Shown in pieces: positions 57,322 through 57,880 of a DNA stretch of 64,000 bases. Below the pieces are notes generated by a model, which had not been told where the DNA came from, made no database searches, and saw only the letters and a program-made list of their open reading frames with translations. The stretch spans positions 34,742-98,741 of the IMG/VR virus record IMGVR_UViG_3300032268_001383, one strand, 5' to 3'. Each line of letters begins with the position of its first letter. Position 1 is the first letter of the stretch. The position numbers were made by a program, and so were the translations under genes. This DNA is from a virus.

Positions 57322-57516
57322 ACCACCACCGTTATGAACCATTCCCAAACCTTCAACAATATAATTGTGTTGGTTTTCAACTTCTAGGTCATAAACTTCA
57401 ATATCTTGTTGATTTTCAATTTCAATATCACTAACTGTATTGAAATTCAAATTTTCAATTAGTAGATTCAAATCTACCGGGTCTTCTATGTATCCTGTCG
57501 GATTGTCTGTAATCAT
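57322..57516 (-). CDS. nrdA: NrdA fragment 2, exon 1: split-intein-1 C-half (62 aa) plus GGG
   Basis: VYDLEVENQHNYIVEGLGMVHN|GGG; own ATG preceded by an A-rich leader. Confidence 0.88.
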
Positions 57517-57547
57517 ATTTTTAATTTTTTTTTGTTTTTATTTAGAA

Positions 57548-57880
57548 TTAATATTTCAAAATTTTATCTCCTTTCAAAAGTTCTTTTGCTGCAATCCATT
57601 CTATCTGATAGACACCATTTTTAATACCTTTTATAATATTTTCTCTTGAAATATCACTCGATAAATTTCTAATAACTAATATTTGATGTTCGCCAGTAAC
57701 TTTATTGATACCGGATTCCGTTTTGATTACAATTATATCTTCTGATTTTTTATTGAAAGTTTTCTTTTTTGTAACTTTATTAAATGTTCCATCAGAAGTC
57801 AGAACTTCGTCACCTTCGTTGATGACATCAATATTGATTGTACCATTTTTAGTGATTACTTTACTATCTTTTGTAAAACA
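57548..57880 (-). mobile_element. split intein 1, N-terminal half (110 aa)
   Basis: AVDQ|CFTKDSKVIT block A, GDEVLTSDG, VTGEHQIL block B, WIAAKELLKGDKI then stop. Confidence 0.9.

Follow-up and report, generated by a model that had tools for sequence, protein, structure and literature searches.

A naturally split intein with glycine at the +1 position in a viral ribonucleotide reductase, and a virus-wide family in which ligation may proceed without a +1 nucleophile

To our knowledge, every textbook and review holds that protein splicing needs Cys, Ser or Thr as the residue that opens the C-extein (the +1 position); this requirement is the main practical limit of intein tools, and it leaves a scar residue. 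The intein described here, from a stretch of freshwater phage DNA of 64,000 nucleotides (positions 34,742 to 98,741 of the IMG/VR record IMGVR_UViG_3300032268_001383; hereafter the window), interrupts the large subunit of a class I ribonucleotide reductase (RNR) and is followed by Gly. Green, Novikova and Belfort 2018 (PMC5784728) list RNR inteins at this very site in their supplementary data. Among them, the intein of Cafeteria roenbergensis virus (CroV; InBase entry, PMC5784728) is inserted at the same point, behind the YV[DN]Q of loop 2, and resembles the window intein in its Cys1 start (CF.P[DE]T), its TxxH, VYDL..HNY and G.VHN motifs; the two are alignable and stand in the same tree. The CroV intein differs in continuing as HN/SGRRKGS (a slash marks a junction here and below), where Ser at +1 makes canonical splicing possible and stays behind as a scar in place of the native Gly; it is also contiguous, with an endonuclease domain, whereas the window intein is split, has no endonuclease gene, carries Gly+1 and would be scarless if excised. 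Pandoravirus salinus, dulcis and inopinatum (GGGKRKGAF) and Cedratvirus A11 (GGRRKGAA) have inteins at the same site with Gly+1 (PMC5784728), but these are contiguous and come from eukaryotic giant viruses. That study lists the Gly+1 exteins without comment and its main text never mentions Gly or glycine; in the literature searched, we found no paper remarking on or testing an RNR intein without a +1 nucleophile.

In the window, one RNR large subunit (NrdA) is encoded in pieces on the minus strand (58753-53280; the viral record as a whole is 98.7 kb long, with a G+C content of 30%). We take the first of its two inteins, intein 1, to be a genuine, selection-maintained and naturally split member of a virus-wide intein allele whose native +1 residue is Gly, and whose exteins would be ligated by the freed amine of this Gly; judged from sequence, we give this reading a probability of about one half. 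The pieces around its junctions are:

57881..58753, minus strand: NrdA N-extein, an open reading frame (ORF) of 291 residues ending ...ETARAVDQ, with Pfam matches to ATP-cone, Ribonuc_red_lgN and Ribonuc_red_lgC; it holds the ATP-cone, the all-alpha domain and the start of the barrel
57551..57880, minus strand: IntN1, the N-terminal intein half, an ORF of 110 residues (CFTKDS...KILKY; block B TGEHQ) with weak Pfam matches to Hint_2/Hint
57517..57547, minus strand: A-rich spacer of 31 nt separating IntN1 from IntC1; it contains three in-frame stops and shifts the frame by +1
57331..57516, minus strand: IntC1, the C-terminal intein half, an ORF of 62 residues that opens with a conserved 25-residue extension and carries VYDLEVENQHNY as block F and GMVHN as block G
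57322..57330, minus strand: GGT GGT GGT, encoding Gly+1, +2 and +3; exon 1 closes with these 9 nt, which also supply the 5' strand of helix P1 of the intron
57033..57321, minus strand: group I intron of 289 nt without ORF (Rfam RF00028, 68.7 bits)

Both junctions are as the initial annotation had read them from the letters. IntC1 ends in VYDLEVENQHNYIVEGLGMVHN, and its GMVHN is followed by GGT GGT GGT to the base (terminal Asn codon 57333-57331, Gly+1 codon 57330-57328); NrdA reads ...AVDQ/CFT, with the codons GCG GTA GAT CAA (AVDQ) upstream of the Cys1 codon TGT (57880-57878). The dimensions given there are also correct: the halves lie 31 nt apart with no endonuclease ORF between them (spacer 57547-57517, past the IntN1 stop codon at 57550-57548), and IntC1 has 62 residues against the 35 of IntC2, its counterpart in the second intein. 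The blocks of a class 1 intein are present, namely Cys1 (A), TGEHQ (B), VYDLEVENQHNY (F) and GMVHN (G); against the Pfam profile Intein_splicing IntC1 scores 28 bits, under the cut-off, and a search of the PDB with the family profile matched only canonical inteins. The insertion is in frame, its host site is conserved and its removal restores the host sequence; the first C-extein residue, however, is not the Cys, Ser or Thr of class 1.

The insertion site corresponds by its sequence to specificity loop 2 of class I RNR, VDQ/GGGKR, between the Gln and the first Gly. An uninterrupted allele is found in LR756502.1, a 642-kb phage (GAT CAA GGT GGT GGT AAA CGC), and similar uninterrupted sequence in Tenacibaculum phage pT24 and in Cellulophaga phages; since the uninterrupted relatives match the restored sequence exactly, excision of both intein and intron would be scarless. 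The earlier statement that the host motif leaves no alternative nucleophile holds as well: shifted intein boundaries were considered and rejected, as no register places Cys, Ser or Thr at +1 while still restoring VDQGGGKR.

It is scarcely credible that a canonical nucleophile is merely hidden here, be it that the sequence is in error or that RNA editing, recoding or use of a different splice site of the intron turns the +1 residue into Ser, Cys or Thr. A single transition separates AGT from GGT, and the intron boundary is just 9 nt away; but the codon is GGN in every homologue, including an intron-less split relative (L065) and the cis forms, and the exon frame is fixed by the only G able to end the intron. 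No variant occurs at 57322-57333 in the independent DNA runs X2 and X6 or in the RNA run X20 (the RNA runs X22 and X24 have almost no coverage of the stretch), and the RNA-library contigs of X20, one of them joined across the intron, show no Ser, Cys or Thr codon after HN; such a codon was what the initial annotation had named as a finding that would overturn its reading. The stretch is present in freshwater and lake metagenomes from 13 studies.

The glycine extends well beyond this copy. In a collection of 5.8 billion proteins, the 66-residue IntC1-GGGK ORF has 56 short homologues (43-97% identity), and all 56 carry the ending HN-GGG, a regularity well outside chance; the ORFs then run on for one or a few variable residues (K, KK, KTSF, E, I) before they stop, as predicted by an intron that starts past the third Gly codon. 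Gly+1 is likewise found in the split relatives L001, L002, L006, L007, L019 and L065, the IntN of phage relatives being 48-70% identical to IntN1. The layout recurs in a huge phage (LR756504.1), where an endonuclease ORF of 307 residues separates the halves and the ending is LVHN-GGGKL-stop; in L065, NrdA-IntN is followed by a 296-residue endonuclease ORF and then by IntC fused to GGGKRKGS, with the intron absent, a layout that reads as a classic fractured gene. The contiguous state also occurs with Gly: P0059 is a 966-residue NrdA with a 154-residue mini-intein (VDQ/CFHPETK...AIVHN/GGGKRNGS), and a scan of IMG/VR with the IntC alignment matched 216 viral contigs, of which 80 were kept. About 70 of the 80 carry contiguous inteins of 148-415 residues at exactly this site, all reading YVDQ/C...HN/GGGKR and mostly in giant-virus bins.

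One search pattern of the IntC scan was VHNGGGK, which biases it towards Gly. This was corrected by a phmmer search with IntN1 alone against 1.84 billion cluster representatives, in which the contiguous loop-2 inteins retrieved have Gly+1 in 13-14 and Ser+1 in 7 representatives, and nothing else; the Ser+1 C-exteins read SGKR.GS or SGRRNGA and belong to the CroV-type clade. Searched against the viral contigs, IntN1 found no relative, and the loci came from the IntC alignment. As a control, some 30 related inteins in 301 Chloroflexota genomes are all followed by Ser, Cys or Thr and sit in other proteins, none of them in RNR; intein 2 of the same nrdA gene also has a canonical +1 residue (Thr). 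Surveying homologues at the insertion site, as the initial annotation had proposed, thus finds Gly+1 in every member of the split phage clade and as the majority state at the site, the reverse of a situation in which homologues all have Ser, Thr or Cys and this copy is inactive. What the annotation had not noticed is that Gly+1 is family-wide and includes the cis inteins of giant viruses. Gly+1 here is neither a sequencing error nor the mark of a dying copy.

Some variants at or near the site were seen besides. Two split N-inteins at the same loop-2 site start with Ser1 (P0064, AVNQ/SFTADTE; P0073, AVNQ/SLVADTL), and a contiguous one (P0122) is without the penultimate His of block G and may be a decaying copy. 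The UvrD/PcrA-type helicase inteins of Chloroflexota and of one Syntrophothermus (L087-L114) have blocks F and G (VYDLEVENLHNYIA.G.VVHN) that closely resemble those of the RNR family, followed by a canonical Ser (SIY.WRGAD).

Split and contiguous members alike conserve Cys1, the Thr-x-x-His of block B, the Asp/His of block F and the terminal His-Asn; no residue separating Gly+1 from Ser+1 members was seen in the comparison. A tree of 87 splicing domains unites the phage split inteins in a single clade (99% SH-aLRT) and does the same for the Ser+1 inteins (98% SH-aLRT), for which one change of state therefore suffices; the Gly+1 lineages are more than 1 substitution per site apart, which makes Gly+1 an old state and no recent lesion. 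The ratio of nonsynonymous to synonymous substitution (dN/dS), computed pairwise after Nei-Gojobori between the window and its phage relatives and rough because dS is saturated, is 0.04-0.08 for the exteins against closer relatives (0.17 for the C-extein against L001), 0.12-0.36 for IntN (0.50 against L001) and 0.13-0.25 for IntC (0.35 against L001). All values are clearly below 1, pointing to purifying selection on the exteins and on both intein halves.

These values bear on the idea of a dead element, in which no splicing occurs and the reductase is non-functional or decaying. Viral reductases are dispensable in many hosts, and the +1 nucleophile is indeed absent; yet such an element should not retain the low ratios just given, reading frames that are intact in dozens of diverged contigs, cis forms of which many are long enough to hold an endonuclease domain, and a second, canonical split intein in the same gene. 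We consider it highly improbable.

The two halves are predicted to pair. In a complex model of IntN1 (with ten extein residues) and IntC1-GGGK the ipSAE score is 0.85, while the best of three controls scores 0.00; the model runs share at least 90% of their contacts, partner pLDDT is at least 74, and the modelled interface includes residues 291-295 and 61-64. Of 80 solved complexes 58 attain the ipSAE mark used, and of 110 mismatched pairs 2 do. Since split inteins are among the structures already solved, passing it may reflect likeness to them and is no proof of binding. Together with the separate extein-IntN and IntC-extein ORFs, their stops and the frame shift, the modelled pairing has intein 1 conform to a naturally split intein. 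Within IntC1, residues 1-25 (57442-57516, minus strand; consensus IESGT.WIEDP.DLNL.ID.L.F) are conserved as strongly as the catalytic blocks, and residues 16-27 lie within the modelled interface with IntN1.

Split-intein halves generally bind tightly, and with this predicted pairing the Hint domain might simply stay in loop 2 as a clamp or permanent insert, holding the fragments together without any chemistry. This is improbable: Cys1, the block B His, the block F Asp and His-Asn, which such a role would not need structurally, are conserved across lineages more than 1 substitution per site apart, and inserts of 148-415 residues should disrupt a loop that links the specificity and catalytic sites. 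Of the alternative set up by the initial annotation, a naturally split intein with a non-canonical mechanism or one that only cleaves or clamps, the general form stands, while a pure clamp is disfavoured by the conserved catalytic residues and by purifying selection on both halves.

The conserved residues are those of the first canonical step (the Cys1 thioester) and of the third (Asn cyclisation), while steps two and four need the side chain of Cys, Ser or Thr at +1 as a nucleophile (PMC4031507). As this side chain is absent, canonical transesterification is impossible and no branched intermediate can form. We propose that splicing would proceed as follows. The group I intron would leave the mRNA, so that IntC1-GGG is translated in fusion with KRKGS... 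(the intron match and its boundaries are observed, its splicing is weakly supported); IntN1 and IntC1 would then join as one Hint fold, as in the model. An N-S acyl shift at Cys1 would yield a thioester between Gln291 and Cys1, as the conserved Cys1, TxxH and block F Asp suggest, and cyclisation of the terminal Asn, to which the conserved His-Asn points, would free the C-extein with an N-terminal Gly-Gly-Gly. In place of a branched intermediate, the free alpha-amine of Gly+1, which the active site of the Hint domain and the reductase fold would keep close to the thioester, would attack that thioester directly, forming the native Gln-Gly peptide bond. The resolution of the sortase thioester by an oligoglycine amine is chemically the same as this last step. 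For the type A class of bacterial intein-like (BIL) domains, an aminolysis route with the freed alpha-amine attacking the thioester has already been proposed (Mills, Johnson and Perler 2014, PMC4031507). A glycine-compatible route for the maturation of these reductases is predicted and probably exists. The further claim, that these would be the first true inteins, cis as well as naturally split, to ligate without a +1 side-chain nucleophile (the N-terminal Gly aminolysing the Cys1 thioester directly and so being joined to Gln) and would constitute a fourth mechanistic class of protein splicing, is put forward tentatively, at a little under even odds.

Several observations weigh against ligation by the freed glycine. 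Engineered Ala or Gly mutants at +1 of ordinary inteins cleave and are not known to splice. No obvious extra catalytic residue that could activate the amine is seen in either the Gly+1 or the Ser+1 clade. All placeable occurrences of the Gly+1 family are viral, and a scan for [IM]VHNGGGK in 185,579 prokaryote species gave no cellular example (the matches of that scan are only the UvrD-type inteins of Chloroflexota and one Syntrophothermus, with Ser+1); because viruses, in which alone the family was found here, have reductases of an auxiliary kind, a weak or partial function is possible. If loop 2 tolerates a nick, as it might, ligation would be unnecessary. In type A BILs, finally, cleavage products outweigh ligation (PMC4031507).

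The main rival is cleavage with the products staying together: the intein halves would bring the fragments into contact, the thioester would be hydrolysed, Asn cyclisation would free the C-extein and the intein would leave, giving a nicked, non-covalent enzyme of two chains (here, three chains minus one). It would require the same conserved residues as ligation (Cys1, TxxH, His-Asn), and it is the usual result where the +1 nucleophile is missing, dominant in type A BILs (PMC4031507); the restriction of the family to viruses agrees with it, and a functional non-covalent split NrdA is documented in phage Aeh1 (Crona et al. 2011, PMC3045599). The Aeh1 case (Friedrich 2007; Crona 2011, PMC3045599) is akin to the window in being a phage nrdA broken by a mobile element and still functional, but differs in having no intein, in using short tails as interaction domains and in being broken elsewhere. 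Here the nick would fall inside specificity loop 2, right after the conserved Gln. The contiguous forms of giant viruses would moreover make two chains from one, with no evident gain. The position after the conserved Gln is functionally sensitive in yeast and in E. coli R1. The inteins at this site have only Gly or Ser at +1, whereas intein-free reductases also have Ala there (QAGRRKG in Marseilleviridae and a Micromonas virus), which fits, weakly, a requirement on the attacking residue. Taken with the evidence on its two sides, cleavage without ligation is a serious but less likely reading, and ligation by aminolysis is the one we prefer.

Preferring ligation by the glycine amine invites comparison with the BILs. 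Type A BILs share with the window intein the Hint domain, an N-terminal Cys, a C-terminal His-Asn and the lack of a +1 nucleophile (PMC4031507), and a BIL that was split artificially ligates in trans (Amitai 2003; Dassa 2004; Aranko, Oeemig and Iwai 2013, all following the summary in PMC4031507). BILs, however, occupy variable regions of non-conserved bacterial proteins, do not home and mostly cleave (PMC4031507), whereas the window element lies at a conserved site of a housekeeping enzyme, has endonuclease-bearing relatives and restores the host motif exactly; it thus has the His-Asn end without a +1 nucleophile of a type A BIL, but not the variable, non-homing location. On these sequence grounds the family would be classed as an intein that departs from class 1 at its +1 residue and that is set apart from the BILs by its location and mobility.

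The split itself is best understood against the fractured genes described by Dassa et al. 2009 (PMC2677866), whose arrangement of extein-IntN, an endonuclease ORF of ~300 residues and IntC-extein is shared by L001, L007 and L065. Published fractured nrdA cases adjoin the thiyl-radical Cys and have a canonical +1 residue (PMC2677866), whereas intein 1 lies in loop 2 and differs further from fractured genes in that the endonuclease gene is gone and a 31-nt spacer is left. Among the relatives this spacer measures 12, 41 or 164 nt, or ~940-985 nt where it holds the endonuclease ORF of ~300 residues; L001, L007 and L065 have the gene between the halves, and only 12-164 nt stand in its place in the window, L002, L006 and L019. 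From the short spacers in these four, the split state outlasts loss of the endonuclease gene. Two IntC homologues (P0057 and P0058, 139 and 172 residues) have an upstream extension of 70-100 residues (MKKFWEQQEWL...), which looks like the remnant of a lost endonuclease gene fused to IntC.

The reason that the IntC1 ORF stops one codon past GGG (AAA TAG) is that the group I intron starts there, 9 nt past the intein (RF00028, E 3.5e-17, gathering score 50); with the intron directly following the GGG codons, only spliced RNA can encode the host motif DQGGGKR. The boundaries are GGU/AAAUAG...AAAAUG/AAACGU; U is the last base of the 5' exon and G that of the intron. In L002, L006 and L007 the intron likewise starts AAATA right after GGT and ends AAATG before AAACG; at the Rfam gathering threshold it is recognised among the relatives only in L002, those of L006 and L007 being delimited by exon homology. 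The guide GCUUCCAC is conserved in these three and pairs with G-GUG-G(U/A)G-GU, the splice-site U standing opposite G. Helix P1 thus takes in the codons of Gly+2 and Gly+3 but, in the codon of Gly+1, just the final two bases. A serine codon, AGU, would pair equally well and intron-less members also have Gly, so that the intron does not explain the glycine; the candidate explanation that intron pairing forces Gly+1 was rejected on the same ground, P1 spanning only the second and third bases of that codon.

The DNA runs X2 and X6 carry the intron, and in the RNA run X20 one contig skips exactly 289 nt at 57029-57032/57319-57322 (depth 3.4, with 21 nt on the short side). This contig lends weak support to splicing of the intron, DNA of an intron-less relative in the RNA library being an alternative source of it. 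In the same run, the summed contig depth rises to ~500-630 at 57492-57565, where the A-rich spacer gives way to IntC1, with loose ends on both sides; most likely these are low-complexity matches from other organisms and no expression signal of the locus.

Two features of the intron ends concern its unspliced RNA. As the intron starts AAA TAG (57319-57321), unspliced mRNA yields a free IntC1-GGGK peptide, and at its other end the intron closes with an ATG (57033-57035, minus strand) in frame with exon 2; products of the unspliced RNA could compete with the proper partners. The homologous intron of L006 (4177-5125) is 948 nt long, as against 289-295 nt elsewhere, and may have gained an ORF or another insert.

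Past the intron, nrdA continues through a second split intein:

56004..57032, minus strand: middle extein with the catalytic barrel, ending ...CIMPTAS (ORF, Pfam)
55668..56003, minus strand: IntN2, 112 residues, of the second, canonical split intein (ORF, Pfam)
54042..55646, minus strand: endonuclease-like free-standing ORF of 535 residues between IntN2 and IntC2 (Pfam DUF7487, 65.6 bits; REase_MTES_1575 below the cut-off)
53922..54026, minus strand: IntC2, 35 residues, ending VSHN, followed by Thr+1 (ORF)
53283..53921, minus strand: NrdA C-extein, TASILGNEAS...CGS (ORF, Pfam)

Intein 2 shares the fractured-gene layout of Dassa et al. 2009 (PMC2677866), and the 535-residue ORF is probably its free-standing homing endonuclease.

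A large and old family, maintained by selection, thus breaks the +1 rule at one site of an important enzyme, and it spans cis mini-inteins of ~150 residues as well as a compact natural split pair of 110 + 62 residues. To build one enzyme in the window, two different events of protein trans-splicing would have to work together with the RNA splicing of an intron only 9 nt off. If only cleavage takes place, many viral reductases would be nicked, multi-chain enzymes, cut in their specificity loop, which would be new for RNR biology. If ligation is true, the family would represent a mechanism of protein splicing that is new, and would offer a model for joining at glycine without a scar; and if it proceeds by aminolysis, the split phage form would be a natural scarless trans-ligase for Gly-initiated partners.

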